A DNA stretch of 64,000 nt from Podarcis vaucheri (taxonomy: Eukaryota). A program made the translations under genes and the position numbers. Where the stretch lies: NCBI GenBank assembly GCA_965113315.1, contig OZ220366.1; one strand, 5' to 3'. Below the pieces are notes generated by a model. It did not search any database and was not told the DNA's origin. It saw nothing but the letters and a program-made list of their open reading frames with translations. How positions within the stretch are numbered: position 1 is the stretch's first letter; each line of letters begins with the position of its first letter. Shown one piece after another: positions 4,474 through 63,812 of this stretch.

Positions 4474-4890
4474 GAGTGAGCTGGACCATAAAGAAGGCTG
4501 ATCGCCGAAGAATTGATGCTTTTGAATTATGGTGCTGGAGGAGACTCTTGAGAGTCCCATGGACTGCAAGAAGATCAAACCTCTCCATTCTGAAGGAAAT
4601 CAGCCCTGAGTGCTCACTGGAAGGACAGATCATGAAGCTGAGGCTCCAATACTTTGGCCACCTCATGAGAAGAGAGGACTCCCTGGAAAAGACCCTGATG
4701 TTGGGAAAGATGGAGGGCACAAGGAGAAGGGGACGACAGAGAATGAGATGGTTGGATGGTGTTCTTGAAGCCACTAGCATGAGTTTGATCAAACTGCGGG
4801 AGGCAGTGGAGGACAGAAGTGCCTGGCGTGCTCTGGTCCATGGGGTCACGAAGAGTCGGACACGACTAAACGACTAAACAACAACAACAA
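4474..4890 (+). mobile_element. BovB (RTE clade) LINE 3' fragment
   Basis: ORF SWTIKKADRRRIDAFELWCWRRLLRVPWTARRSN...WRALVHGVTKSRTRLND* and (CAA)n tail. Confidence 0.93.
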
Positions 4891-11361: not shown

Positions 11362-11832
11362 TTTGTTGTTGTTGTTTAGTCGTTTAGTCGTGTCTGACTC
11401 TTCGTGACCCCATGGACCAGAGCACGCCAGGCACTCCTGTCTTCCACTGCCTCCCGCAGTTTGATCAAACTCATGCTGGTAGCTTCGAGAACACTGTCCA
11501 ACCATCTCGTCCTCTGTCGTCCCCTTCTCCTTGTGCCCTCCATCTTTCTCAACATCAGGGTCTTTTCCAGGGAGTCTTCTCTTCTCATGAGGTGGCCAAA
11601 GTATTGGAGCCTCAGCTTCACGATCTGTCCTTCCAGTGAGCACTCAGGGCTGATTTCCTTAAGAATGGAGAGGTTTGATCTTCTTGCAGTCCATGGGACT
11701 CTCAAGAGTCTCCTCCAGCACCATAATTCAAAAGCATCAATTCTTCGGCGATCAGCCTTCTTTATGGTCCAGCTCTCACTTCCATATATCACTACTGGGA
11801 AAACCATAGCTTTAAGTATATGGATCTTTGTT
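11362..11832 (-). mobile_element. BovB (RTE clade) LINE 3' fragment
   Basis: Same peptide on the minus strand (KAMVFPVVIYGSESWTIKKA...) with (TTG)n tail at 11362. Confidence 0.93.
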
Positions 11833-30700: not shown

Positions 30701-32471
30701 GTTGAGCCAGCACTAGAGATTAGCATAAAGCACTATGTCTAATCCAGCATGTAGCTGCTTGAAGGAACAAAGCATCCTGCGTATACATTTTTAAAAAAGA
30801 ATAATGGTGTTTCTTTCATACCTCATCCAGGCATATAATGGTAATACCGCACTCCATGTAGCTGCCAGTTTGCAGCATCGGGTGAGTCAGCTGGATGCAG
30901 TTCGCTTGTTGATGCGGAAGGGAGCTGATCCCAGTGCCAGGAACTTGGAAAATGAGCAGCCGGTTCACCTAGTACCTGATGGCCCTGTAGGAGTTGAGGT
31001 AAGAGATCCAACTAACTGGAGCTCTTTTGAAGTGTAGTGGGTGGTAATCAGGATGGACACCTCTGTCAGTTTGGGCATCTTTCAGTTTCTCTCCCCACCC
31101 CCACCCCCCAGTCTTAAGTTCAGTCTTCACATTTCCATATCTGTTTGCCTTACAAAAATAAAAATCTGCATCAAAACTCATCACCATTTTAGTGCAAATT
31201 TCTCCTAATATGAACATTTGTGCCATGAATTTTTCCATTTTTCCTGGTTATATATATTTCAACAATGCATGCATTTTATGAATTTCAGAGGATAACTGTG
31301 TTTCAATTTGCACACTGCAAATTAGGTGGGTTCACATTAAAATCCAAACTGAGCTGAATTCCTCCCTTATTCCTAGATAGTAAGTTCATACTTTATTTTT
31401 AAGAAGAGACTCTTGCTTTGAGAGTGTAATGTTCGGTTCTTTCCAATTATTGAGTTCTGTTGCTTATTTCCCTAAATGCCAAATATGCAACTTTTGAAAG
31501 TGAACATTTTTTTCTTTTACGTTACAGAGCATGGGTAATTTTAGCAGACTGCAAAAAAGATGTCGAGCAACTAAAAATAAAAATATGTGTGGCATCAGCA
31601 TAATTATGCACATAGAATCATATAGTTGGAAGGGAGTATGAGGGTCATCTAGTCCAACCCCCTGTAGTACAGGAATCTTTTGTCCAGTGTGGGGCTCAAA
31701 CCCGTGACCTTTAGATTAAGAGTCTCATGCTCTACTGACTGAGCTATTCCAGTCTGTAAAGCTACGGATGTAAACATCAGTCTTTTGAGCTTGGGTTGAT
31801 TATTTACCTTAATAATCCTTTACCTGAATAATCCTTGATGCCCTGTACGTTTTTTAGAAACTGCGTCATGGGCAGGTCAGTAAACAGCTAAACTATCGCA
31901 ATCCTGTTGACTTGACTGACTGTACAGCTGTGGTGATGAAATCTGGCTTTTATACTATCAGAATTTATCTGGAAACCTAGTTGGATAGATAGCTTTGTTC
32001 ATTTCAGTTGATGTGTAACTGTCAGCCTAGTACAGTCATACCTCGGGGTGAATACACTTCAGCTTAAATATTAAATATTTCAAATATTTCAGAGTGTGTT
32101 ACTTCCGGGTTTCGTCGCTCGTGCATGCGCAGACGCTCAAAATGATGTCACGCACATGCACGAAAGCGGCAAAACGCGACCCGCGCAGACACGCAGTCGT
32201 GTCTTACGTTCGCTTCAGGATGTGAACGGGGCTCTGGAACGGATCCCTTTCGCATCCAGAGGTACCACTGTACTAGGCAGGTTTCCTTGGAAGTTAAGTC
32301 TCCTCACATTCAATGAGAGTTAGGTGTTAGTAGATGTATTTGGAACTGTAATGTATTTTTTCATAACGTCAGAATTGGTGAACGTTGATAACCCATTGCT
32401 TCTCTTTTGTTCTCCAGATAAGACGGGTCTTGAAAGGAAAAACGACTCAGCAGAGATCACCAGTCTATTAA
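21087..32471 (+). CDS. NFKBIZ: NF-kappa-B inhibitor zeta (IkappaB-zeta), 12 coding exons: join(21087-21339,24606-24745,26228-26264,26382-26485,26574-27325,27651-27756,28005-28151,28824-28887,29667-29836,30580-30690,30831-30998,32418-32471); 701 aa
   Basis: Translated exons give MIVD..., FQGVRVKNSVKELLLH, PVSLNTVQVSW, FQWQVEQEESKLANISQDQ, ankyrin repeats (DGDTFLHIAVAQGRRA, WGRTPLHVCAEKGH, KSGRSALHLAAEEAN, YNGNTALHVAASL) and the C-terminus IRRVLKGKTTQQRSPVY*, all recognisable from IkappaB-zeta. All introns are GT-AG with compatible phases; total 2106 nt. Confidence 0.97.
21966..22045 (+). mobile_element. CR1 3'-tail fragment in NFKBIZ intron 1
   Basis: gcagggggttggactagatgac...ttctatgattgtatga. 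Confidence 0.7.
22244..22399. mobile_element. Non-autonomous DNA transposon with 9-bp TSD, NFKBIZ intron 1
   Basis: TIR CATAGCTGTCA / TGACAGCTATG; TSD AACATATGC at 22235-22243 and 22400-22408. Confidence 0.88.
24606..24745 (+). CDS. NFKBIZ: NFKBIZ coding exon 2 (contains OCA/POU-binding motif and short-isoform Met)
   Basis: acag|TT GAG CAA CGT ATG...; VEQRMGGGKQQRGPFQGVRVKNSVKELLLHLRNSKQMSSDHGADELK; donor AAG|gtgcgg. Confidence 0.95.
26228..26264 (+). CDS. NFKBIZ: NFKBIZ coding exon 3 (37-nt micro-exon, VQGGLPNYDPYT)
   Basis: cag|GTACAA...ACAG|gtacag. It supplies the phase 0 to phase 1 bridge needed between exons 2 and 4. Confidence 0.82.
26382..26485 (+). CDS. NFKBIZ: NFKBIZ coding exon 4 (NLS RKRK)
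   Basis: Long pyrimidine tract + tag|AG; ELKNILTNGRKRKAQDSFSDVSCYKRTAPFQPHLL; donor CTG|gtatgt. Confidence 0.94.
26574..27325 (+). CDS. NFKBIZ: NFKBIZ coding exon 5 (transactivation region)
   Basis: ttttacag|ACACCTCCA (TPPQTP...) to ...KDADGD(T); donor AC|gtgagt, phase 2. Confidence 0.96.
27651..27756 (+). CDS. NFKBIZ: NFKBIZ coding exon 6 (ankyrin repeat 1)
   Basis: ccccacag|G TTT CTC CAC; FLHIAVAQGRRAVSYVLARKMVALHMLDIKEHNGQ; CAG|gtgagg. Confidence 0.96.
28005..28151 (+). CDS. NFKBIZ: NFKBIZ coding exon 7 (ankyrin repeats)
   Basis: SALQVAVAANQHLIVQDLVSLGAQVNTTDCWGRTPLHVCAEKGHAQVLQ; tag| and |gtaagc. Confidence 0.96.
28824..28887 (+). CDS. NFKBIZ: NFKBIZ coding exon 8
   Basis: AIEKGAIVSNQYVDWEATNYD(G); cag| and |gtgagt. 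Confidence 0.95.
29667..29836 (+). CDS. NFKBIZ: NFKBIZ coding exon 9 (ankyrin repeat with insertion)
   Basis: GLTALHCAVVAHNAVVHD...DTIKFLIEMRASVEAR; tag| and |gtaagt. Confidence 0.95.
30580..30690 (+). CDS. NFKBIZ: NFKBIZ coding exon 10
   Basis: DRKSGRSALHLAAEEANVELLRLFLELPTCLSFINAK; cag| and |gtacgt. Confidence 0.96.
30831..30998 (+). CDS. NFKBIZ: NFKBIZ coding exon 11
   Basis: AYNGNTALHVAASLQHRVSQLDAVRLLMRKGADPSARNLENEQPVHLVPDGPVGVE; cag| and |gtaaga. Confidence 0.96.
31611..31752 (-). mobile_element. tRNA-Lys(CTT)-derived SINE with CR1 3' tail (NFKBIZ intron 11)
   Basis: Minus strand reads tagctcagtcagtagagcatgagactcttaatc...gggtttgagcccca (tRNA-Lys-like) fused to gggggttggactagatgaccc...attctatg. 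Confidence 0.85.
32033..32270. mobile_element. Tigger-like MITE in NFKBIZ intron 11
   Basis: TA|CAGTCATACCTC...GAGGTACCACTG|TA. Confidence 0.82.
32418..32471 (+). CDS. NFKBIZ: NFKBIZ last coding exon (IRRVLKGKTTQQRSPVY*)
   Basis: ttgttctccag|ATA AGA CGG...TAT TAA. Confidence 0.95.
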   Translation: MRRVLKGKTTQQRSPVY

Positions 32472-32500
32472 GCTCCATGAGTGAACGATGACCTACGCTC

Positions 32501-32610
32501 GCTGTCAGTTAGGCAGCCGATGTTACTGTAAATAGACCATTTGTCCAGTGGAGGCAAATGTTAGTTGTTTCTATGAAACAAAAATATCTTGTTTACTATT
32601 ATATAGTGGG
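32501..32610 (+). promoter_or_regulatory. NFKBIZ 3'UTR stem-loop cassette (Regnase-1/Roquin CDE-type decay and translational silencing elements)
   Basis: Four hairpins: 32501-32517, 32538-32560, 32565-32581 (UUGUUUC-UAU-GAAACAA) and 32592-32610 (UAU triloop). They closely match the mammalian NFKBIZ proximal 3'UTR as recalled. Confidence 0.85.
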
Positions 32611-34178
32611 TTAATGGCAACACTTCTGAACCAGATGGGAATATTTCATACCCAGGTAGTTTGGATCAGTCTGAGCTGGTCCATTTAACTGACTTTACAA
32701 CAGTAGTGTAACAAATATCAGGCAAGAATAATTGTTACTTTTCAAAAAGAAACTTAAACACTCTAGAGCTGTTGTTCATTACATGAAACATAAGCTTTTT
32801 AAGAATACTAACATAACATTTTGCAAGTAAACATTTATATCATACGTGTTTTATGCAGTACTATGTATAGGATGCTTTGTGATTTTCGAATTGTAATAGT
32901 TTGTTGCAGTTTGATACAGGACAAAACAATTTTTTAACTTTTAAATTTGAGAATTCTGTGTAGAATTCAGTAAAGTTTTTATAAGCATTTAATGGCTTTT
33001 ATAGGTATGTTTTTGTTGAGGGAGTTGATACCTGTGTTAGTCACCTTGCAGACTAAAGTATGAAGGGAACATTTATCATCTCCAGTTTTCCAGCAACAGT
33101 TTATGAAAACTAAAAAAAGAAAAGAAAACATTTTGGACTATTCCCCCCCCCCATTTTTAAGTTATTCTCTTTACATTTAATTGGAGTAACATTTGATTTT
33201 CACACCATTATATATTTTCCCACTTCTCATTTCAGAGTTTCTAACTTAATAAGAAGCATTTATAGAGAGGTTAAAGTTGCTTCTTCATCTGTGCGTTTCA
33301 GATAAGGGATTAAGCATGTTCTTGAGTATATTAGTAACTGGATTTCCAAATGACACCAAATTAGTTTGAATAAAGAGCTCCAAACAGGCAAGAAAATGAC
33401 AAATGAGATTCAGTGTAATTGTCAAGTGATTTACATTTCACATATACCCTGATGGGATCTAAATTTGCTGACCTCAGAGTAAATTGTAAAGGAAATCTTG
33501 GCATTGTGATGGATAGCTCAGTAAAAATGTCCCATCAGCCTTTGCAGACACCATGTCCAGTGGTCAGGGATGATGGGAGGTGGAAACCTCATCTTCAGAA
33601 TGTCAGTTGCCTGGAAAGAAACAGGGTGTGGGTATCATTGCTTCATGCCCTGCATATGACATTCCCAGAGGCATATGTCTGACCATGGTTAGAAATAGGG
33701 TGCTGGACTACATGAACCCTTGGGAAGATCCATCAGGGTTTGTCTTATGTTCATATGCTGAATTTGTCTCTCTGTTTTTGAATTGAGAAAAGTATTTCTC
33801 AGGGCTTTGCAGAAATTTAATTCTATTGTATTGTTTTTACCTCATAGGTATCGTAGGCAGTCAAGTATTAATGTTTTAAGAATGGTAGTAACTATTTTTG
33901 TTGTTGTTGACAATTTTCAAATTAGTATTTCAGATAATGTAGCTAAAGCATATTAAATACATTTATATAGTTATTTGCTTATACAATTATGCAGCATGCT
34001 TTTAAGTCTACTCCCTCTGTACATTTACTGTTTCCTGAGTGACTATTCTGCATTGCATATCTTTTCCATAGTTATTCTGATCATATTGTTTGACCAAGTA
34101 TGTCTTGTAGACAAATAATTGGAGCAATGTTATCTCCAAAGCAGAGCTTATTCTTGTAATATCTGATATACATTTTGG

Positions 34179-44317: not shown

Positions 44318-44878
44318 CTCCATGGAACATTTGGAGCTGCCTTATACTGAGAGAGGAAGCAGCTCCTGGTTAATGTCAGGAGGAGGAAGAGGAGGCTGAA
44401 CATGGAGCCAAGAGTGGTGCAGTGCAGCTTCAGTGGCCAGCAGCTCCTCCTCTCCCCCCTTCTGTGTAAGGGAAAGATGGGAAAAGCAGCCCCTGCTGGT
44501 GGGGGTGGCAGGAAGAGGAGGTTGAGCGAGAGAGAGGAGGAGCCACCAGCCACTGAGGCCATGCTGCCGCTGCATTCGGCTCCACACCCTGGCTCCTTCT
44601 TATGTGCCTCATGCCACATCCCGATGTCACACGTGCGCCATCGGCCCCCTCAGACCTCTGCACAAGTTGGCACCTCTACCCCAATGGATGGGCTAAAGAG
44701 CTGGGCACACCAGCCATACTCTTCTATCCCTGCTTCGAGCAGGAAGCTTTGAAGTTGGATGGTAAGTGTGTTAGGAGAGGTGGGTTAGAAATCTGTTAAA
44801 TAAATGCACAAATAATGATGCACGCCTGACTCAGCCCTTTGTTCTCATTAATTCTACAGCTACACGGGTTAGTTAGAG

Positions 44879-46609: not shown

Positions 46610-47976
46610 CATAGAATAGAATCATAGAATCATAGAAGAATCATAGAATCATAGAGTTGGAAGAGACCACAAGGGCCATCGAGTCCAACCCCCTGCCAAG
46701 CAGGAAACACCATCAGAGCACTCCTGACATATGGTTGTCAAGCCTCTGCTTAAAGACCTCCAAAGTAGGAGACTCCACCACACTCCTTGGCAGCAAATTC
46801 CACTGTCGAACAGCTCTTATTGTCAGGAAGTTCTTCCTAATGTTTAGGTGGAATCTTCTTTCTTGTAGTTTGGATCCATTGCTCTGTGTCCGCTTCTCTG
46901 GAGCAGCAGAAAACAATCTTTCTCCTTCCTCTATGTGACATCCTTTTATATATTTGAACATGGCTATCATATCACCCCTTAACCTCCTCTTCTCTAGGCT
47001 AAACATGCCCATCTCCCTTAGCCGTTCCTCATAAGGCATCGTTTCCAGGCCTTTGACCATTTTGGTTGCCCTCCTCTGGACACGTTCTAGTTTGTCAGTG
47101 TCCTTCTTGAACTGTGGTGCCCAGAACTGGACACAGTACTCCAGGTGAGGTCTGACCAGAGCAGAATACAGTGGCACTATTACTTCCCTTGATCTAGATG
47201 CTATACTCCTATTGATGCAGCCCAGAATTGCATTGGCTTTTTTAGCTGCCGCGTCACACTGTTGGCTCATGTCTTTCATGCATAATTTTTTATTAATTTG
47301 CGTAGTACAAAATACAAGTCAAGTTTGTGGTCAACCAAGACTCCTAGATCCTTTTCACATGTACTGCTCTCAAGCCAGGTGTCACCCATCTTGTATTTGT
47401 GCCTCTCATTTTTTTTTTGCCCAAGTGCAATACTTTACATTTCTCCCTGTTAAAATTCATCTTGTTTGTTTTGGCCCAGTTCTCTAATCTGTCAAGGTCA
47501 TTTTGAAGTGTGATCCTGTCCTCTGGGGTGTTAGCCACCCCTCCCAGTTTGGTGTCATCTGCAAATTTGATCAGGATGCCCTTGAGTCCATCATCCAAGT
47601 CGTTGATGAAGATGTTGAATAAGACCGGGCCCAAGACAGAACCCTGTGGTACCCCGCTAGTCACTCTTCTCCAGGATGAAGAGGAACCATTGATGAGCAC
47701 CCTTTGGGTTCGGTCAGTCAGCCAGTTACAAATCCACTGAGTGGTAGCATAGTCAAGACCGCATTTTACCAGCTTCTTTACAAGAATATCATGGGGTACC
47801 TTGTCAAATGCCTTGCTGAAATCAAGGTAGGCTACATCCACTGTGTTCCCCTCATCTACCAGGCTTGTAATTCTGTCAAAAAACGAGATCAGGTTAGTCT
47901 GACATGACTTATTTTTCAGAAATCCATGCTGACTATTGGTGATCACAGCATTCCTTTCTAGGTGCTCACAGACTGT
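46610..47976 (-). mobile_element. CR1 LINE, 5'-truncated; RT ORF2 disrupted
   Basis: [58 protein letters not shown]; (ATTCTATG)n-type tail; ~47-bp insertion near 47274-47320. Confidence 0.95.
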
Positions 47977-48048
47977 TTTGGATGATTGAAGCCAGTACAT
48001 TTCTATTCCCGTGCTGTACGTGCTTGATTTGTACCAAAACATGGAAAT

Positions 48049-48123
48049 TAGAATCATATAATTGTAGAGTTGAAAGGGTCCCTGAGGGTCATCAAGTTCA
48101 ATCAACCCTTTGCACTGCAGGAA
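48049..48123 (-). mobile_element. CR1 3'-tail fragment
   Basis: tagaatcata...gagttgaaagggtccctgagggtcatc. Confidence 0.65.
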
Positions 48124-49663
48124 ACTCGTGGTTTCCCATCCAATTTGAAACCATACCAGACCCTGCTTAGCTTTGCAAATGTGCTAGCAGTTTTCTTGCT
48201 GCACCACTTGGGACTGAAAATGGTGAATAGAAGCATCTGCTTCCCAGTATTCAATGTCTGTACATGCATGTCCATCATTTGACAATTGCAACTTTTGCAA
48301 GTGATGACCTGTGAATGTCAAACAGCTTAGTGGTTCCAGGTACATATTTTTCTTTGAAAGGAATGCTTTAGTTAAATTCCCAAAAGTTGCTTTTCAGGGT
48401 GCATTTAGGTTTTATAATCTGTGGGTGGAGTTTGGCACATTACTGAACTGCATGTTTCATGTTTAAATTTATACACACAAACACATACTCCACTTTTCTC
48501 TATAAATCTTCTCTTCATGCTTTAGCACACACGAACTCTTTAACCTTACCATCTTGCAATTTGCATGAGCAATTAATTGGCATGCCTAGATTTACTGTAG
48601 CCGCCTCTTCAGGTGAGTCACATGAACATTACATGCTTTCCAAACCCTCTCTCTGTTTATTAAGGCCATGGGGTAGTTTCGATTGACAGGCCCATAAAGG
48701 AAATATGCAAAAGGAAACAGAGCCAGGGGATGTTTCATAGCCACATAATATAGTGTGATATAGGTAAATCAGAAAACGGGTTTGAATCTACTTACTATGG
48801 TTTGCTTTAAAAATATGTAAAAAAGGAAACCCTGGAAAGTTTCCTTGTTACAGTACCTGTTAAGGAAAATGTCAGAAAAGATCTGGTGTGAGGGCATTTG
48901 TACCTATGCACTTTTCAATTGTAAGCTGCTTTGAGTTTGCTTTTTGTTAAAACAAAACAAAACAAAACAAAAAAAGACTAATGGCAATGATAATAATGCC
49001 ATTCTGTTGCAGAATCAGTGCAGCCAAACACCCAATTGCTGCAGAGCTACAGTTGCACTGATCAAGGTATTGGCATGAGTTGATATGGAAAGAAAGGGGC
49101 TGTAAGGGAGCAGGAAGATGTAGTGTCCTAAGAGAATGGCAGTGTCAGTCCGAGACATTTTGCAGAGCAAAATGGAGTCCAAATGGTGCTTGCTCCCTGC
49201 TAGGGAAAAGTCTGCTGCAACATTCAGACATCAGTTCCTGCTTTCATCTCTCTCACCCACCCCCATTTTAAAGTGCTACCTAAAGCAAATTGCTTCATGC
49301 CGCTACATGGTAGGACTGGCCCTGGACAATGGTGGAAATGCAGCACTTCCCAACATTGTTGATTGCCAGTGATGGGAAGTGCTGCATGGAAGGCTTTGTG
49401 GGCACCACTGCTCAGCCGATCAGTTGTGCCGCAACGCCCCATTTGTCCAAGCCCTGTTTTTACCCGATCCACATTGAATGTCAAGTGTAAGGAAGCTAAT
49501 GTATATGTAGCTCATACGTGGTCACTTTCACAAGAGAAGAAGAGATGGCTGATGGCTGATTTATTGCTGCTTCCCAATCTGTCTTCTAGTATAAGTTATC
49601 TGCTAGGGCAGCCAAGGCAGTTTCTGAACCATACTGAAAGCAAGAATGTAAGGAATTAATATA

Positions 49664-49921
49664 CCGTATCTTTTGCTCTATAAGACTCACTTTTTCCCTC
49701 CTAAAAAGTAAGGGGAAATGTGTGTGCGTCTTATGGAGCGAATGCAGGCTGCGCAGCTATCCCAGAAGCCAGAACAGCAAGAGGGGTTGCTGCTTTCACT
49801 GCGCAGCGATCCCTATTGCTGTTCTGGCTTTGAGATTCAGAATATTTTTTTCCTTGTTTTCCTCCTCCAAAAACTAGGTGCGTCTTGTGGTCTGGTGCGT
49901 CTTATAGAGCGAAAAATACGG
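49664..49921. mobile_element. Tc1/mariner-pogo type MITE
   Basis: TA TSD, CCGTAT termini, internal hairpin; near-identical to 57171-57421. Confidence 0.88.
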
Positions 49922-52030
49922 TAACTGACTTTCTCCAGGAAAGCATTGAGGAGGGTTGCTACCATGCACCTTCATACTTCACACAAGAGTGGAATAGCAA
50001 ACACTATTTGCTAAAATACCCCCCCCCCCAAAAAAAAAAGATCCCTTCTTTAGTATAAATGGACTATGGCCATCTTGCAGAGAGGCATTAACAACTTCTA
50101 CCATATATTTAGATAGCAACATGTAATTTTTTAATTAGAGAAGAATGCCAGGAGTTGCAAGTGCATGTGGTCAGTCTTGTTCCTCCAGAGCTCCTGTGTC
50201 CACATCCTAAGGCTGAACAAACTGAAAGGCATCCATAACAACCTGATAAGATGGTGCAGTAGATGCCTCCACAGTAACCTCAGACAACCAGTTCAACTTG
50301 GAAAAGATGCAAGCAATTTAATCTACAAAATGCTTTGCGAACTAGTCCCAGTCTCTCCCAGGGACTAGGTTGTGAACATCCCCATGTAACTTGGAACAGC
50401 TGTGTTGGAGATATTGAGAATATGAAATGGTGATGGAATTCAGTGGTGTGCAGTGAATTTTTGTGTGCATAGGGGACCAGTTAGGGTCAGAGGCGCCAAC
50501 TTGCAAGGGCGATGGGCGGGGGCAACACCCCGTGCGTGAGGTCCTGCCATCCTGCCATGAGCATTGCACCTCCTTCCCGAAGCCAGGCAAAAGCTTCCTG
50601 GGCTTTGAGAACGAGGCACCATGCTTTAATACTTTAATATGCTAATTTACCAAAAACATTTAGGAGACTAGCCTAGTCCCCCTACTGACTACACGCCACT
50701 GGTGAAAGTCTAATTGTTTCCCTGCCACCATCATCGTAAAGTAGTCACTAAAATGGGTTTTGGTTCACGAGTCTTATATTAAAAGCCAACACTGAAACCA
50801 TTAGCACTGTAGAGAAAGGCACAGTGTGTTGTGTGAGCACATCTCCTTGTATTTTAAATACACTCCATGCTGATTCACCCATGCTTAGTTAGTTAAAGTG
50901 AGTTCTTTCCAGTTTGATAATCATACTAAATTAGGAAGATCATCTATGCCAAACTATTGTCCTCAGTGACACTTACGAAGCATTGGATTCCCATAAGTGT
51001 GAGTGTAAGGAGCTCTGTTGAAGCCAATTAGATGTGGATTCATAATTTTCTTTTTTACTTAGCTTAGGTGTCTGCTAGGACAACTTAGAACATACCCTCC
51101 AACATGGTGAAGCAAAAAAACCAGGCCACTGTCTTACGGGGCTGCATTCCTGTGTGAGTGACTCACATGAAATTGCGGCCTCGAAAGACATGCTTTTTAA
51201 AGGCCTGCCACCCAAAAATGCACATTTGGGGGTGCCACATGGGATTGTGGCCCCGGGGAAAAGTGCTTTTTTCAGGACGAGATGGTGGTGTGAGATTGTG
51301 GCGCCCAATATGGCCACCATGCTCTCGCATTGTGGTGTTCTAGTTTTCTTGGGACAGTTGAGGGGCATGCTACTGAAATTTAAGACCCCCAAGGCCCACC
51401 ATTGAGCTCGTATGGCACTCTTGCCACTGCATTTGCCCAGTGCTGACCTTCCTGCTGTGTTCTTTCCCACTCTTCCTTTCAGTAAGTGACGGTGAGGTAA
51501 ATGCTTCTTCCCTATCCCAGCATATGCTATTGCTTCAGCTCCTGGAGCTGGCTCTGCTCATTTAGGCAAGTTGTTAGATGGCCCTGTGGAGGAAGCAGTA
51601 CACAAGATCTTCCATGTGTCAGTTAGGCAATATTATTCAATATTCAATAATGACAGCGCAGTTCCCTTTTAAAAAATGACCTAATGGATTCCCATTGTGT
51701 AATCAGTATTTGAAACGATGTTTCCAGGCTAGTTGGTTCTTCACTTGCGTGGGTGGGGATGTCTCTGCTAGGGCCCCTGACATTTCCCTCTTATTCTCCC
51801 ACATGCGTGCATTTTGGTAGAATTTCTGCCCGACAGTTTCTCTTCCCTAATACAAGTAACACATGAAGGGGCTCATCTTTTTCTTTTTGTGGTGCCTACA
51901 AAGCTTCCCTTGCACACTTTGGCCACTTAGTGCCCTGCCCAGAGACTTACTTGTTTTATCGATTTGCAATTTCAGCATATTCATATGCATGGATACTTAG
52001 AAGTAAGTCCCACTGAGTTCATGCTTCTTT

Positions 52031-55353: not shown

Positions 55354-57170
55354 AGCAATCTTTGTAACCAGCCCTTTCTCTATGCACAGCATTCTTGGAG
55401 TTGCAATATATACACTTACCTTGGAGTAAATCCCAGTGAACTCGGTAGGACTTGGTAGACCCAGGATTGTGCTTTAAATGATGTGTCTACTTGAACATCT
55501 GCTATTTTTAATCTACCCTCTAATACTGAATATGGATGGTTTCTCATGGACTGCTCTATAATTGGGGGACCATTCCCCAAGCATCGCCCCCTGGATCTTT
55601 GCTGTTACTAGTACCCACCTGGTGGGTGATTTTATCGCAGAAAGGTAGATTGTATAAATAAATGAAACACTGGAGTATCTCATCAATCTGTCTACTATTC
55701 TTGACAAGTAGGCTGGTATCCACAGCCCCAGTTGCAGAGAGGGACTGAGGCTGCTGCTGCTGGTGATGGTTAATGGCTTGCCAAAGGCAACTTAGTGAGT
55801 TCATGGTTGAGATTACGGACTTCTGGTTTGCAGTTGTTCATAGAGTTTAAATTGCCTTTGTGCATCGCTTTCACTAGGCAATCGCTGTTAAAGCAGAGGA
55901 TGAAATGGAACAGGGTAAGTGTACCATGGGGGGAGGGCACAGGGGTGGTTGCCCTGGGCACAAAACTGTTAAGGGTGCAAAATTTCAACACCCGGTGCTT
56001 CCTCAATATAGATGTGTTCTTCCATTGGTGGACTTCGTTGATAACAGCTTCTCCATGCACACCCGGAAATGACCTCTCCAGACAACGGAATGACTCTTCT
56101 TTTCTTATCTCTGCAGCTGCGATCTCCTGGGTGATGTGGATGCCATTAGGCAGTTGAATGCACATGTGTACTCTGACCATTTCCCCTCCCTCCCACTCAC
56201 CTACCCATCTGCATGGCCCCGGGCACTGACAAACCACGCTACGCCACTGGTGCATAGGCTTGTAGACTAAAGGTAGGAATGGATGATACAGTCCTGATTA
56301 TTCCCCTCCCTATAGTAGGGAATGGTAATGAGGATTGTGCCGTACCTTTCCATCCAACCGATGCACCTGTCCTACCTCTGATGCCACTGGCCATTCATAT
56401 AGGGGTGTATAGCAATGGAGGTTTGTAGCATTGTGACTTTCAGGACTACCTGTGAAGGGTCCTCAGAGGCATTGCAAAAGGGCTACACTGTCCACTGGCA
56501 TATTGATTTTTTAAAAAACTGAAATGCAGCCCAAGGGGGTTGCTATTTTGTCTAGAGCCGCTGGAGGTGGGGAAACATTTGCACTGCTATTTGCCCCTTG
56601 GGGAGAAAGTATAGTTACCTATTTTTAACACATTCCCCTGTGCTATCCCCCCCCAGTCAAAACTGGGCCCCAAGCTGTTATTTTATACTGATTACAGGTA
56701 TCTTTTTCATGTTTTGTTTCCACCCCCACTTCAGATCAGAGTGGGGGTGGAAACAAATTTCCAAAACAAACAAAATTTCTCCTTGCTTCTGTCTTTTCTT
56801 GGAAGAGATTAGTGTTGTTCATACCTTCCAACACATGTTTCAATGCAGTGGTCAACACAGACAGTTCCTGGTAGACTGTTTACATATAGCTGATTTAATG
56901 CCTCTTAAGCCTAGTTAGATAACATTAATGACACTGCAATGGTGATTCAGCAGCCTTAATCAAGCTGTTTTTTTTTAAAAAAATGCATGAACTTAAGAAC
57001 TGCTTTGCTGGAACAAGCTGAAAAGTACATCTAGTACAGCACTCAGTCTTCAACAGGAACAGTTCAGGCAGACGAGGAAAACAGGAAGAACAAAGGTGGT
57101 CTAGTTATTCACATAATATTCTGTTCATGCTTTGGGTGGTCACTTATTCATTTCACATCTTTGCTTTATA

Positions 57171-57421
57171 CCGTATTTTTTGCCCTATAAGACTCACTTT
57201 TTCCCTCCTAAAAAGTAAGGGGAAATGTGTGTGCGTCTTATGGAGTGAATGCAGGCTGCACAGCTATCCCAGAAGCCAGAACAGCAAGAGGGATTGCTGC
57301 TTTCACTGCGCAGCGATCCCTCTTGCTGTTCTGGCTTCTGAGATCCAGAATATTTTTTTTCTTGTTTTCCTCCTCCAAAAACTAGGTGTGTCTTGTGCAT
57401 CTTATAGAGTGAAAAATATGG
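57171..57421. mobile_element. Tc1/mariner-pogo type MITE
   Basis: TA TSD, CCGTATTTTT termini, internal 31-bp stem. Confidence 0.88.
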
Positions 57422-57699
57422 TATATCCTGTGAAATACAGTGTTTTTATGCATTTTTCCCCAAACCAACTTCACTGTGAATTGAGAACAAGAATGACCTG
57501 ACTACATTTTGAACCAGGGATGTGTATGCAGCTATAGTACAGTTAGCATGTAAGCTTTGAGAAAGCAAACAAATGCTGAATAAACAGGTTATTGGAAAGA
57601 GCCCTGAGATTCAAAGGCCCACTCAGCCATGAAGTTCAAATCCGCACTAGGCAATATGCAGTAAAATGAAGCCTGAGCCTCAATCAATCAATTTATTTA

Positions 57700-57859
57700 C
57701 CATACTTTTCCATGCATAAGACTAGTTTCTTTTAACTAAAAAATAATGCTAAAAGGGGGGGGTAGTCTTATACACAGGGGGAATCTCCACCCCCCATTTT
57801 CTTAATTTTGAGTTCCCCAAAATAGGGGGCATCTTATTGTTATACACGGAAAAATACGG
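57700..57859. mobile_element. Short Tc1/mariner-pogo type MITE
   Basis: TA|CCATACTTTTCC...GGAAAAATACGG|TA. Confidence 0.75.
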
Positions 57860-58940
57860 TATATGTCAGCTGTCCAAAGTTAAAACCATGCCCAAGGTGG
57901 CTTACAGAATATAAAAAATTACAGAACTACAAACATAGCAAAAGTAGTAATAAACAATAAACAAAACACCAAAATGTATACAACCAAATGGAACAAATTT
58001 TACCTAAGCACAGAAGGAGGAATCAATTTTATTTCCCCATTCAGAATGAAGAGAGGGATTCTCTTTATCGGGTTCGGTACTATGTTGGTTGCTGAACTGG
58101 GTCAACTTTTACGTTTCCTTGAGAAGAATGTAACTTCGCCATTACACGTAAAGATATGTCAAAAATATTGACTCTAAAGTTTGCTATGACTCTAGCAAAG
58201 TTATGTTGAAAACGCAGCAGACACAAGGGCGTTCTGCAGGGCTAGATCAAAATTGCAGATAAAGAGCGAGAGAGATGGTGGTTTGCCTTTCGCAAAAACA
58301 AGAAGTGGGAACCTTTAACCTTGAGAGCATCAGTGTAAGATCAGCTTCTGTCAGCTTTTTTGTCTGTTCCTTGTTATGCTGCAATAGTCAAGCCCAGTGG
58401 TTTTTTCTTCTTCCCTGGGGGGACGTAGAGGTACACATACCCCTAAACATTTTGTGAATCTAAGTTTGGCCTCATTGAGAGGCAGTATTTCAATATGAGG
58501 AAAATGAGGAAAATGAGAGTACCCCTAAACATTTTTTTTAAAGAAAAAAAGCACATATCGGCTTATTTTCTCCTGGGCTATTCTAGAATGAGGAGAAGAG
58601 TCTAATGACCATTGTGATTCTTTTTCATTCCTTTTGAAAATGTGTGATTCTGTGTCTTTGATCAACTTTCTTGTCTGGCTGGGGAGTGGTGTGTGTGTGT
58701 GTGTGTGTGCGCACGCGTGCTGAAATAAGCCTATTGTACAACGGTAAAATGAACATTTGTTGTCCCACGCACTTTTGCTTCTGGCATTGCTCACCACTGT
58801 CATTTGGCCTTCAGAAGGTTGCTTTGAAAGAAATGCAAGCTTTGGGTTGAAAAGGATTCCCCTCTCCTGTTTTATTGTATGACTTTATCAGGCCATATAC
58901 TGCTTTGAATTTAAGCGGTCTATAAGCGGTTTGGTTTTTT

Positions 58941-59006
58941 AATAAAATAAAATAAAATAAAATAAAATAAAATAAAATAAAATAAAATAAAATAAAATAA
59001 AATAAT
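58941..59006. repeat. (AAAAT)n microsatellite
   Basis: direct read. Confidence 0.95.
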
Positions 59007-61250
59007 GAAGAAAGGAAAGCCTACCAGATCTCCCCAAGAGGGGTGTCCTGCAGTTGTGGCATTACTACCAAAACAACTCCATCTTCACCACATCTCCACT
59101 GTATATCTGGCGGAAAGTAGTATCTCTTGAGACCAGTGTTTATTGACTAAAAGTCCAACACTGAAAAGTCCAACGCCAGCCTATTCCTGTGCTGGAGTGG
59201 TAGAACAGGGGAGCACGCCAACCTCTAAAGGTGTTAAACATAAAAATAAGTGCGAACTCAGTGGGCAGGAGTTATGTTGCTCATATTTAGTCACCACGAC
59301 ACTTGCAATACCACATTCCATGCAGCGCCAATGGAAGTGTGTGCTGGAAGAAAATAAGCATGTTCCCTCACTGGGAAAGACTGTGATTTGCATGCTGGGA
59401 AAATGCAGTATCTCTGCAACAGAAGTTCTACCTAGAGAGAGCGAGAGAGCATGCCTGGGTCTTCTGCAACAGAAATGAGTCATGGTACATTTATTGTATA
59501 AAGAACAGGCTGCGTGGAAAAGCCCTTAAAAAAGCACTAGAGGAAGAAGAAAAATACTGAAGAGAAGTTCAGATGCAGATGTTCATATCACATGAGGAAA
59601 TGGCAACCAGATTTGTAATAGAATTTATTCTAAAGATAGTGGAATTGTGGTGTTCTGCCTGGCTGATCAACATGTCTCAGTGAGCTATTATTACAGACGG
59701 GGAAGACCATCTTTTTTTCCACCCTGCTTGGGATAGATTAGCTGTTGGGTGCTGGAAGTTCCTGATCTTTAGGCCGTGGTAGGGTTGGTTGCAAGAGGAA
59801 TCTCTTGAGTTTAGCCTGAGTCATTACATAGATGTGCCTGACAGTACAAGAGAGATTCCCTTACGCATCATTTGTGGGGTTCCAGTGAGTTGCTCACTAG
59901 GTTAACTGTGTGGGCCTCAGGTACACTACACCCTCCAAGTGCCCCTGTTTTCCAGGGACGTCCCTGATTTAGAAAAGCCATCCCAGTTTCTTATTTGATC
60001 CCAGAATGCCCCACTTTCCCTTAGGATCTCCCTATTTTCATTGCAGAAATGTTGGAGGGTATGGAGATATCTGAGCCCCGAGTCGTCTGAAGGTAATCCT
60101 GTATAGGGAAGTTTTTTTAAAAAAATGTTTAATGTCTTATTATATTTTTACACTGTATATGTTGGAAGCTGCCCAGAGTGGCAGGGGCAACCCAGTAAGA
60201 TGTGTGGGGCATAAATAGTAAAATTATCATTATGGAATGGGAAATCCATATTTTCATTGGAGAAATGTTGAATGGTATGAGGTACACTACTGCCAGAGTT
60301 ACAAAAGTCTGAGAAGCATTGACTGAGTATGTCTACAAATGCTAAACAACTCCTGCATTATTAATTTAATTCTGATATTTGCACACTGCCCAACAGTAAA
60401 ACATTAAAGTTCAGTAACTGTCAATCAGCAATCATTAAAACAATAAAAGCAACATTACTGCTGAAATTGCCTGGGCTACTGAGAGGAATGATATCACATT
60501 TCAGAGCCTAGTGATACAGGAAAGAAACATGGTTCAGTCCTCACAAATCTGTATCACTTGGGAATGTTAGTGGGAGGTTGCATGTTGGAACACTTCCCCC
60601 CACGTGAAAAAGCTTCTGCATGTGGAGAGCTATCCTTATTTCATTTATCACGTACATTTATATCTCACTGTCCTTCCACGAAGGAACTCCATCACAGAAC
60701 TCTGTGGAGCTTTCAAGTGGCCTTTCGCCCAGGCAGCAGAAGCACTGCATGAAGGACGGGGGGGGGGGGAGGCAGAATGGCAGTGCTGGGCTCCCCAGGA
60801 TGGACAGAGTGGAGGTGAGCTCTGGGTTGTGGCAGCACCACAAGTGCACACACACCTGCATTTCCACTACCACCAATCCAGAGTTGTGGGAGAGCATCAA
60901 CCTACACCGAGTGGATTTGTATCCAGTTTTAGTGCTTGTACCTAAGTAAAAAAATGTCAAGTGGAAAGTCACCCTCAGATGAGCAAAGGATTGTGGAGGA
61001 GCCATTAATACAGCCTTTACCAAAGGTGCCATGGGCTTTGAAGACACTCGAACTCAGAACGCAAGGGAGAAACATGCTAATAGGAAGGCACGCTTGGCAA
61101 ATCCACACTGTGATCAACTCCTGCCCGGAAACCAATGTCCCCACTGTGGAAGGACGTGTGGATCCAGAACTGGGCTTCACAGTCACTTACGGACTCATTG
61201 TTAAAACCATGTTTATGGAAGACAATCTTACTTGGCTACAAGTGATCACT

Positions 61251-61292
61251 GAAGAAGAAGAGGAGGAGGAGGAGGAGGAGGAGGAGGAGGAG
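61251..61292. repeat. (GAA)n(GAG)n microsatellite
   Basis: direct read. Confidence 0.93.
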
Positions 61293-63812
61293 TTAGGAAT
61301 TCAATCAGGATTAATTACATTAAGCAATTACCTCCATCCCCAGAAGTTTTGTTGTACCAGACCACCATCCTGTTAAAACACACAGGCCTCACACACTCCA
61401 TACATTTACCGCCCCCCATACGGGAAACTGTAGTTTACCTCAGACAAAGCTACAATCCACACCACAGTTTCCAATATTCTTGGGATGTGTTTGTGCTTTA
61501 AATGAGTCTGCCCAGACTTCGCAGAAGGATTAGACAGTGGAGCAATTTACAAAAGGCAGATGCCATGTCACTGGCAGTTTTAAATTGTTATGCTTTTGTG
61601 TATCACTTTAGGTGATTTCACATTGGTGTAAGATTGGAGCCTTGATAAGCTCTGTTTGTGGAAGGTTTCCATGCATGGGGCTCACAATCACCGGATCTGA
61701 CCCACATTAATTCATCTCCACACATTATATGCACATAGGCTTTCTCCAGGTTTACATGTGGAGGCTGGGGGCAGAACCAGTGGCCCAGTCCGGTTTTCTC
61801 TTTCACATATTTGTACCCAGGGCTTTCCCCCCCAGCAGGAACTCACTGGAACTCAGGTGGGCACCACTGCCATTATAAGGGAACAAGGGAAGCGTCCATG
61901 GTGAATTCGGGCACCTCTTTTTCTAGAAACAAGCAATAATTGTACCCATGATTCAAAGAAAACTGTACCGCCTTGTATTCTTTTCCAGTTGTAACATTAT
62001 TTGGAATTTTTATGGACTCGTGGATTCTTAAGGAGGTTTGTGACTCATGAAGTGAATGCTGGTGGCTTGCACAAGCTTGTCTTAACACCAACCCTCTTCT
62101 ACAGGTAAAGTTTGGCTTGGAAGTTATATCTTACATGCCAGAAGGTCTTGTGGCAGAACTGTAGCTTTTGGCTAAAAAGCCTCTTTCATAGTAGAAAGTA
62201 AATTTACTCTTTGTAGATGGGTCCATTCTATTTTCCCTTTTTAAATATAGGCACTGTCTAAAAAGGCTGCAGAAGAAACTCTACTGAGGAAGTGAAAGGG
62301 GCTAAGAGGAAGCTTATAAAAAACAGAATGAATAGGTCAGCATTTATGGGCATCTTTCATGTCTAAAGTTACTGTCCAAACTGCTGACGACACTTAATGT
62401 AATATTAGAAAAGGGATGCATTCTGCTAGCATCATAATACAAAATGGAATGGTGTGTTCAAAGGAGGCTATTTTTACTGTAAACCACCAACAGAGGAATT
62501 TCTTAGGAGAAGTGGTATATTTAAAATAGAGAAATGTTTAGTCTAGCTCCTATGGCTAAATGCCTTCTTAACAAAATTTCAGAAACATGTCACTGTATAC
62601 ATAGGCTTATTCCACATAAATATGTTGCAAAAACCACACCAATGACTGTGATGAATTTGGAGGGCATTCCACATACTATGGACACAATTTCTATTTCTTG
62701 TGTTTCCCCTGGGTTAGATGCCATCTTTCTCCTCTTTAAACTAGCAGTCCAGTCTGCACTCATTTCCACTGGATTCCTGTTTCAAAACACAAGAATTGCC
62801 ATAATGGATTACACCAAGGTCCATCTTTCTTAGCATTCCTTTCTGACAGAGTCCAGCAAGATACCTTTGTAAAGTTCACAGGGAAGGCACAATGGCGACA
62901 ATTACTGTTAGGGTTTTTTTGCCCAGCATCTGATAAATATACAAGCTTCCTCTGAACACAGAGGTCCTATTTAACAATGATTTCTAAGTTCAGAAGTGAG
63001 TGTAGATCCTTAGGTAGCCAAAACTGCAGCATCCATGCACAAGAGGGAGGTATCAGGTTGGGGGGTAACGAAAAGCTTTCCAGAAGTACACACAAACACA
63101 TATAGCTTTAGGAAGAAAACCCCTGAGAGTAGACCTCAAAAAAGCCAGGTGAGGCCTGAATGTGCTCAGTGGCTGATTCATTGTTGGGTTGGGAGAGGGT
63201 GGAAAACCAAGTCAGAGGAAGAATGGAATGAAGTATCCTAACAGAGGACATGGCTGACAGAATGGAACCATGAACTCTGCACTGCAGTGGTTTGTTGCAG
63301 AGCTCACTTGTCATAGGAAATCTTCATTAATCATGTTTACATCCAATAAATTATTTTTAGCAATTGATTGACTGATATTTTAGAATATGTTCTGTATTTT
63401 ACTGAATGTTATTTCACTGTTGATTGTATTTTTTCTGGACGTTGGCAATATATATATTTTGCAGATTAAAAAAAATGTGGACGAAGAAGATGAGGAAGAT
63501 ATGTTGAAGTGCCCTTCCCTTTCAGAGTATTTGAAACAAAAGTGGTTTGTCCTACCAAATGTTGAAACAGGAACTGAAAAGAAAAGCTCTGAGCTTAAAA
63601 GTACGCAGAGAACACCTGGAATCTACTTTTCACTCAAGATGTCAGAAATGCCCTGGGCAATTTTATGTTTTGAATGGTTAAAATGATATAACATGGGGCA
63701 TAAAATGGAAAACAACAGGCATCAAATAGTAAAAAACAAAAACAAATATAACACATGGTAGTAGGAGCATGAGACAGGCAAAAATGTGTACTGGGTGTGC
63801 CATTTCAGATTC

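Follow-up and report, generated by a model that had tools for sequence, protein, structure and literature searches.

Probable exon remains of a dead intron-containing gene behind NFKBIZ in Podarcis vaucheri

Does the DNA behind NFKBIZ in Podarcis vaucheri still hold the remains of a gene that has ceased to work? The window considered here is a stretch of 64,000 nucleotides (nt) of contig OZ220366.1 (assembly GCA_965113315.1), and an original prediction, made from the letters alone, had proposed that seven short islands on its + strand are exon relics of a decayed relative of the coiled-coil protein CCDC91. Our answer is that the + strand of 55.6–63.7 kb probably carries exon remains of a dead intron-containing gene, whose product is predicted to have been a helical, coiled-coil-like protein rich in E, K, Q, L and A. 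This answer is based on the segments themselves, on the lesions they carry, on the margin by which they exceed controls, and on their being single-copy and also present in two close relatives; statistics support a decayed + strand coding gene with introns, as do lesions that the two relatives share without visible constraint. As to its family, CCDC91 is the leading guess, and takes up about half of the confidence that we place in the dead gene. The seven islands and two candidates added by a scan are, in order:

55641–55715, + strand: island 1, with AG and GT ends; coding score −4.5, missed by the scan, single-copy depth at 55685
55878–55914, + strand: new candidate exon relic of 37 nt, AIAVKAEDEMEQ, whose donor is the consensus GTAAGT
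56951–57095, + strand: island 2, candidate exon relic broken by a stop and by one or more frameshifts; donor at 57095 recovered by the scan
58045–58076, + strand: island 3, candidate exon relic of 32 nt, whose acceptor is at the 98th percentile
58196–58304, + strand: island 4, candidate exon relic of uncertain frame; acceptor recovered
59509–59679, + strand: island 5, 171-nt candidate exon relic overlapping the rank-3 segment 59473–59649
60733–60814, + strand: new, weaker candidate exon at rank 8; coding score 3.7, acceptor 5.0, donor 6.5
62251–62335, + strand: island 6, frameshifted candidate exon relic; exact ends in the scan, rank 10
63465–63600, + strand: island 7, best-scoring candidate exon; exact ends in the scan, rank 1

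Is this set more than chance would give? Every AG-to-GT segment 30–200 nt long in the unmasked part of either strand was scored, with no coordinates supplied, by a frameshift-aware coiled-coil composition model combined with splice scores; NFKBIZ, tandem repeats, repeats within the window and frames of long interspersed nuclear elements (LINEs), together 36% of the window, had been masked. The three best segments of the whole window (63465–63600, 55878–55914 and 59473–59649) all lie on the + strand of 55.6–63.7 kb, where the seven best segments sum to 71.7 against 29.5–47.1 in all 13 control strand-windows, a lead that held under each of eight parameter sets (z 4.3–6.1). Of the 12 best segments, six fall within 8.3% of the unmasked sequence (P 2e-4, rising to 2.4e-3 once the 12 possible locations are allowed for). 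With a generic protein model the region again came first (50.0, control maximum 41.4), and splice sites alone gave 78.1 against 66.0 ± 6.5.

The plainest rival is that purine-rich, slippage-prone neutral DNA gives E/K-rich peptides by chance and that the best cluster was picked from many windows. We consider this unlikely, since shuffles that keep the purines, the reversed and complementary strands and bootstraps of real DNA all fall far short of the observed score. None of 300 block shuffles matched it, including 60 with 12-nt blocks that retained the purine islands, and none of 2000 bootstraps of real flanking DNA reached it (maximum 60.0); with the best segment removed, 0 of 2000 reached what remained, and with the best two removed, 4 of 2000 did. 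The signal is also directional, with 31.7 for the reversed sequence and 47.1 for the reverse complement against 71.7. Moreover, the scan, blind to coordinates, returned both ends of two islands (6 and 7) and one end of three more (the donor of 2, the acceptors of 3 and 4), gave a segment that overlaps island 5, did not find island 1 and proposed two new candidates.

Several observations nevertheless weigh against a fossil gene, and a number of them also speak for chance. After removal of the best three segments 159 of 2000 bootstraps reached what remained and the signal was gone; it is carried by about three segments. A threshold for stop-free coiled-coil composition is passed by only two of the seven islands (5 and 7), while 32 segments pass it on the two strands of 33–64 kb. 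The reversed sequence scored above controls too under the generic model (43.3), and splice sites alone lead only narrowly, their control maximum being 77.1. Splice phases are no more continuous than chance would make them (343 and 312 of 729 offsets are as good), and heptad periodicity over nine peptides is not significant (p 0.12 and 0.46). In addition, the model was picked after the finding had been read, in a region selected for that very property; the controls are 65,596 bases of one window with repeats masked within that window only; the selection made over the whole scan is uncorrected, and the frequency tables are assumed ones. To these are added the want of a homologue in protein and Pfam searches, and conservation that does not exceed that of the flanks, with the acceptor of island 5 kept in neither relative, all of which are detailed below.

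How do the islands look one by one? As predicted, an AG precedes and a GT follows each of the seven, and the peptides quoted for them are found in their frames. They had also been called purine-rich islands in AT-rich DNA; their purine fraction is just 0.55–0.71, and the AT-richness does not set the region apart, its GC being 0.38–0.46 per kb and most of the window no less AT-rich. The islands exceed chance as a set and are ordinary when taken singly. Each kb has on average 67 AG and 55 GT dinucleotides, and the island flanks, 14 in all, lie between the 47th and 98th percentiles of an assumed splice matrix, values that free choice of the ends could attain. Four of the seven islands have stops in all three frames. 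As to an exon-intron layout, AG-GT coding-like segments are in excess, yet phase continuity stays at chance and no junction reads were seen.

Island 1 is the weakest of the seven. Its new neighbour at 55878–55914 ranks second in the window (score 12.2, donor 6.3) and shows single-copy depth at 55905. Island 2 appears in the scan as segment 57057–57095 (rank 12) and island 4 as 58196–58277 (rank 26), while island 3, whose acceptor was recovered, has a low total score of 5.2. The frameshifts proposed for island 5 are unnecessary: one frame is continuous apart from a single TGA, so they become optional. The added candidate at 60733–60814 combines strong splice sites with a low coding score, and its depth of 44–59x against about 30x means that it may touch a repeat. 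In island 7 one frame is open as far as the stop at 63684–63686. A far stronger acceptor (score 8.0) lies inside it, and at 63526–63600 a second frame reads QMLKQELKRKALSLK; the frame and the start of this island are therefore uncertain. Further relics had been suspected at 54.4–55.2 kb; these were rejected, as none of the eight best + segments of 33.5–55.6 kb falls there. Two other + segments, 44380–44416 and 44743–44779 (scores 10.2 and 9.4), adjoin a CpG-rich stretch at 44.5–46 kb that has short repeats in common with 2.7–2.9 kb; they are possibly upstream exons or repeat-derived.

What do relatives tell us about the state of the locus? Six sequencing runs from three organisms contain at least half of the words of 55360–63800, and four of 22 runs were compared: those of organisms B (X3) and C (X4), and two RNA runs of organism D (X9 and X13) out of 16 of RNA type. 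B and C, which are 98–99% identical to the region, carry the same broken islands in single copy. Islands 5–7 have single-copy depth in both (26–52x), against 10^4–10^6 for the repeats between islands, and the read depths of B and C leave no room for a further island copy of at least 88% likeness. The disabled reading frames are not assembly errors, as contigs of B and C span island 5 without a gap.

Within the islands the relatives differ in ways expected of sequence under no restraint. The island 2 stop TAG at 57032 is CAG in B and C, the island 5 acceptor AG is AC in both, and organism B lacks 3 nt of island 4 at 58300 and carries an 11-base insertion in island 6, following 62261. Over islands 1–5 (532 nt) organism B shows at least eight substitutions, that is at least 1.5%, against 76 in 5816 nt (1.3%) over eight listed contig pieces, and no conservation above that of the flanks is visible. 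Of the eight listed B substitutions, read in the proposed frames, one is synonymous, six change a residue and one turns a stop into Gln. The divergence, the single synonymous change in eight, the indels of islands 4 and 6 and the altered acceptor all fit neutral evolution, in small numbers and among the differences listed, which are 40 of 315 substitutions and 12 of 30 indels. This is the behaviour of neutral DNA, whether fossil or not; the altered acceptor and the partial list count with the points against a fossil gene.

Could the segments be something other than a coding gene? They might be very old coding pieces of transposons, or exons of a non-coding transcript from an unsampled tissue, a pair of explanations that we regard as quite improbable. 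LINE-derived frames in the window are coiled-coil-like as well (46854–47108), splice sites are strong in the two new segments, and in human (3q12.3) and mouse (chr16) NFKBIZ is the upstream neighbour of the long non-coding RNA RDUR, according to PMC8160526. Against a transposon, the islands are single-copy at 88% likeness, whereas neighbouring repeats reach depths of 10^4–10^6, and they lie kilobases apart on one strand. Against a non-coding transcript stands the RNA of organism D, which maps to the region at 98% (piece 60396–60588). In X9 (raw reads, 12% of them read) and X13 (contigs, RNA by guess), whose tissues are unstated, depth was 0 wherever islands 1, 2, 4, 5, 6 and 7 were sampled, by site or by bin; the bin of island 3 carries repeat depth. 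No GT..AG joint between islands, of the kind that the prediction proposed to look for, occurred among the 15 listed of 260 joints. No RNA run is listed among those that contain at least half of the words of 55360–63800.

One stretch close to island 1 did carry RNA. At 55642–55923 the depth was 30.5 in X9, with first mates on the + strand only (0 on the − strand), and 88.7 in X13; over the same stretch RNA depth was 0 at 55685, 55864, 55905 and 55923, and DNA depth was about double. Expression of island 1 was rejected as the source, depth being 0 at 55685, and the reads likely come from another transcript that matches a short repeat near 55.75–55.85 kb.

If a fossil gene is the best explanation, has it left an intact relative? 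The prediction had held that the gene may be intact in other sauropsids, a possibility left unsupported by four protein searches of modest power, none of which returned an intact relative. Three of them were word-seeded. At E≤10 there was no match for the open reading frame (ORF) 63384–63683 among 60 longer candidate proteins, for a profile of six stacked island pieces among 939 candidates, or for a profile of five such pieces among 158. The fourth, a full scan of 1.84 billion representatives with ORF 63465–63683, gave two matches, a near-identical ORF and a repeat protein. The former, P0001, is a 69-residue ORF, 96% identical to that of island 7, on one 900-nt contig; it was rejected as an expressed orthologue, being confined to a single contig with the same stop at that identity, and is likely the same DNA of a relative. 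Pfam families matched none of 15 island frames and none of four further relic queries. These blanks belong with the points against a fossil gene. One PDB search gave no matches; seven weak helical matches found in PDB, the best being designed TPR proteins at E 0.001, were rejected as composition. In the ESM Atlas, searched with island 7 only, the best values were 0.83 and 0.89, below the level of a lead, with nothing at 0.9 or above.

How much these blanks mean was simulated on the assumption that the chosen frames are right, with the database size set to 5.8e9 and a threshold of three words. With 45 real residues, ORF 63465–63683 hit its target in 42 of 50 trials when identity was 60%, and in 19 when it was 50%; with 33 real residues this fell to 6 and 2 of 50. 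The six-piece profile succeeded in 33 and 4 of 50, or 11 and 0 if the open frame of island 7 is wrong, and the five-piece profile in 23 and 5 of 30, or 12 and 0. Overall, an orthologue of 60% identity would be found with a power of about 65–85% if the frames are right and 10–40% if they are partly wrong, and one of 50% identity with 0–38%, in a protein collection whose content of annotated reptile and bird proteins had no positive control. Power being modest, the blank searches lower the odds of an intact orthologue without ruling one out.

Was the dead gene CCDC91-like? The collinear matches that the prediction drew between islands and CCDC91 are putative and look plausible. Nested within the fossil gene is the refinement that it was a paralogue of CCDC91 (p56) whose last four exons are islands 4–7, which we hold only tentatively and judge more doubtful than not. 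According to PMC11153616, the human CCDC91 gene comprises 13 exons and its product 441 residues; exon 11 is 177 nt long, in frame (L309–Q367) and followed by two exons, exon 10 ending EALVSAAK and exon 12 starting ETVKAAII. Island 5, at 171 nt, comes near that exon in length and, shifted by one base, reads L...Q across 57 codons; islands 6 and 7 come after it, island 6 starts ALSKKAAEE, and the composition is coiled-coil-like. At the ends first proposed, however, island 5 has phase 2-2 and not 0-0 as exon 11 has, and the one-base shift leaves GG and TG at its borders where AG and GT would be needed. A third candidate exon (60733–60814) also comes after it. The KAA of island 6 is one residue out of register with ETVKAAII and not above chance, and organism B has its 11-base insertion just before KAA, shifting the frame. 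Island 4 ends CLSQKQE or FRKNK, against EALVSAAK in the human protein (PMC11153616). No CCDC91-named protein was returned by the protein or Atlas searches. The length fit of 171 to 177 nt is not independent, because the island ends were chosen with CCDC91 in mind, and the fit of island 5 to exon 11 is loose, suggestive at most. A loose pattern for the N-terminal GGA/gamma-ear binding motif of CCDC91 had four matches on the + strand of 33.5–55.6 kb, none on the other strand and one in 0–20 kb; none of the matches lies inside the eight best + segments of 33.5–55.6 kb.

The anchor of the locus is firmer. That NFKBIZ lies upstream of the islands was borne out: the upstream + strand gene is NFKBIZ, since the following exon best matches NF-kappa-B inhibitor zeta in PDB (9bor, E 1.1e-29), and it matches Pfam Ank (E 4.9e-09).

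30834–30995, + strand: NFKBIZ ankyrin-repeat exon with Pfam and PDB matches; synteny anchor outside the relic

Near the 3' end of NFKBIZ, 31501–33000 has a CpG observed/expected ratio of 0.77–0.85 despite 38–42% GC, and may be an unmethylated regulatory element. Other elements of the window are repeats. A 260-nt element that contains an inverted repeat is present twice, at 57167–57423 and 49660–49923, the copies being 92% identical; with a depth above 10^6 in relatives, this is a young, high-copy repeat resembling a miniature inverted-repeat transposable element. At 60983–61204, where depth is near 9x10^5, a frame has a C2H2-like zinc finger at its end, whose Pfam match (E 2e-4) does not reach the cut-off; it is likely a LINE 3' end. 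LINE fragments at 4478–4890 and 11363–11775 (97% identical) and a longer reverse-transcriptase-like fragment at 46700–48200 were masked in the scans; their RTE and CR1 labels are presumed.

How might such remains have arisen? In the scenario that we favour, a gene spliced at GT-AG introns and encoding a rod-shaped helical protein would have stood in tandem behind NFKBIZ; its function would have been lost before the divergence of organisms A, B and C, the three sampled here, neutral drift would have followed while repeats filled the former introns, and the relic would yield no protein today. If this is true, it is a lost vertebrate gene that annotation has missed and that gene-loss screens anchored on human cannot see, and a dated gene loss beside a conserved immune regulator; if related to CCDC91, it also reveals a paralogue, so far hidden, of a factor in Golgi sorting. 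The descent of RDUR from a protein-coding gene would also become directly testable. The boldest version strikes us as highly improbable: vertebrates would have had an uncatalogued CCDC91 paralogue behind NFKBIZ that was lost independently in lizards and in mammals, with the islands as its fossil and RDUR as its recycled remnant. Pseudogene relics are common, and the finding is a modest one as long as no living orthologue is identified.

The literature offers little on this neighbourhood. Judging from literature listings, we met no published description of a gene at this place and no occurrence of 'CCDC91-like' or 'coiled-coil domain-containing protein 91-like', and only an unrelated paper joins NFKBIZ and CCDC91. 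The accessible supplements of PMC5577775 and PMC10195156 hold no NFKBIZ, ZPLD1 or CCDC91 row, although one table of the former gives Ensembl identifiers only, so that a row could be missed there. In PMC13005343, CCDC91 and NFKBIZ are just text-less rows of a gene table taken as human-anchored, and PMC10299181 and PMC9850194 were uninformative.

With which known systems, then, does the locus compare? RDUR, as PMC8160526 describes it, is transcribed and virus-induced, whereas X9 and X13 showed no RNA at the sampled places of six islands. CCDC91/p56, encoded at human 12p11.22, is a GGA accessory protein of the trans-Golgi network. The locus differs from it in being broken, in lying beside NFKBIZ, in an exon phase that does not match at the ends first proposed and in having no identified N-terminal part; it may be like CCDC91 in its several candidate exons, in a coiled-coil-like composition and in a 171-nt island followed by two islands where the human gene has a 177-nt third-from-last exon (PMC11153616). 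Unitary pseudogenes and genes that have lost their coding potential, as Hezroni et al. 2017 (PMC5577775) and Wen et al. 2023 (PMC10195156) present them, are defined by an intact syntenic orthologue, whereas here protein searches found none. What the islands would share with them is in-place exon relics with introns, stops and frameshifts, and no visible constraint.

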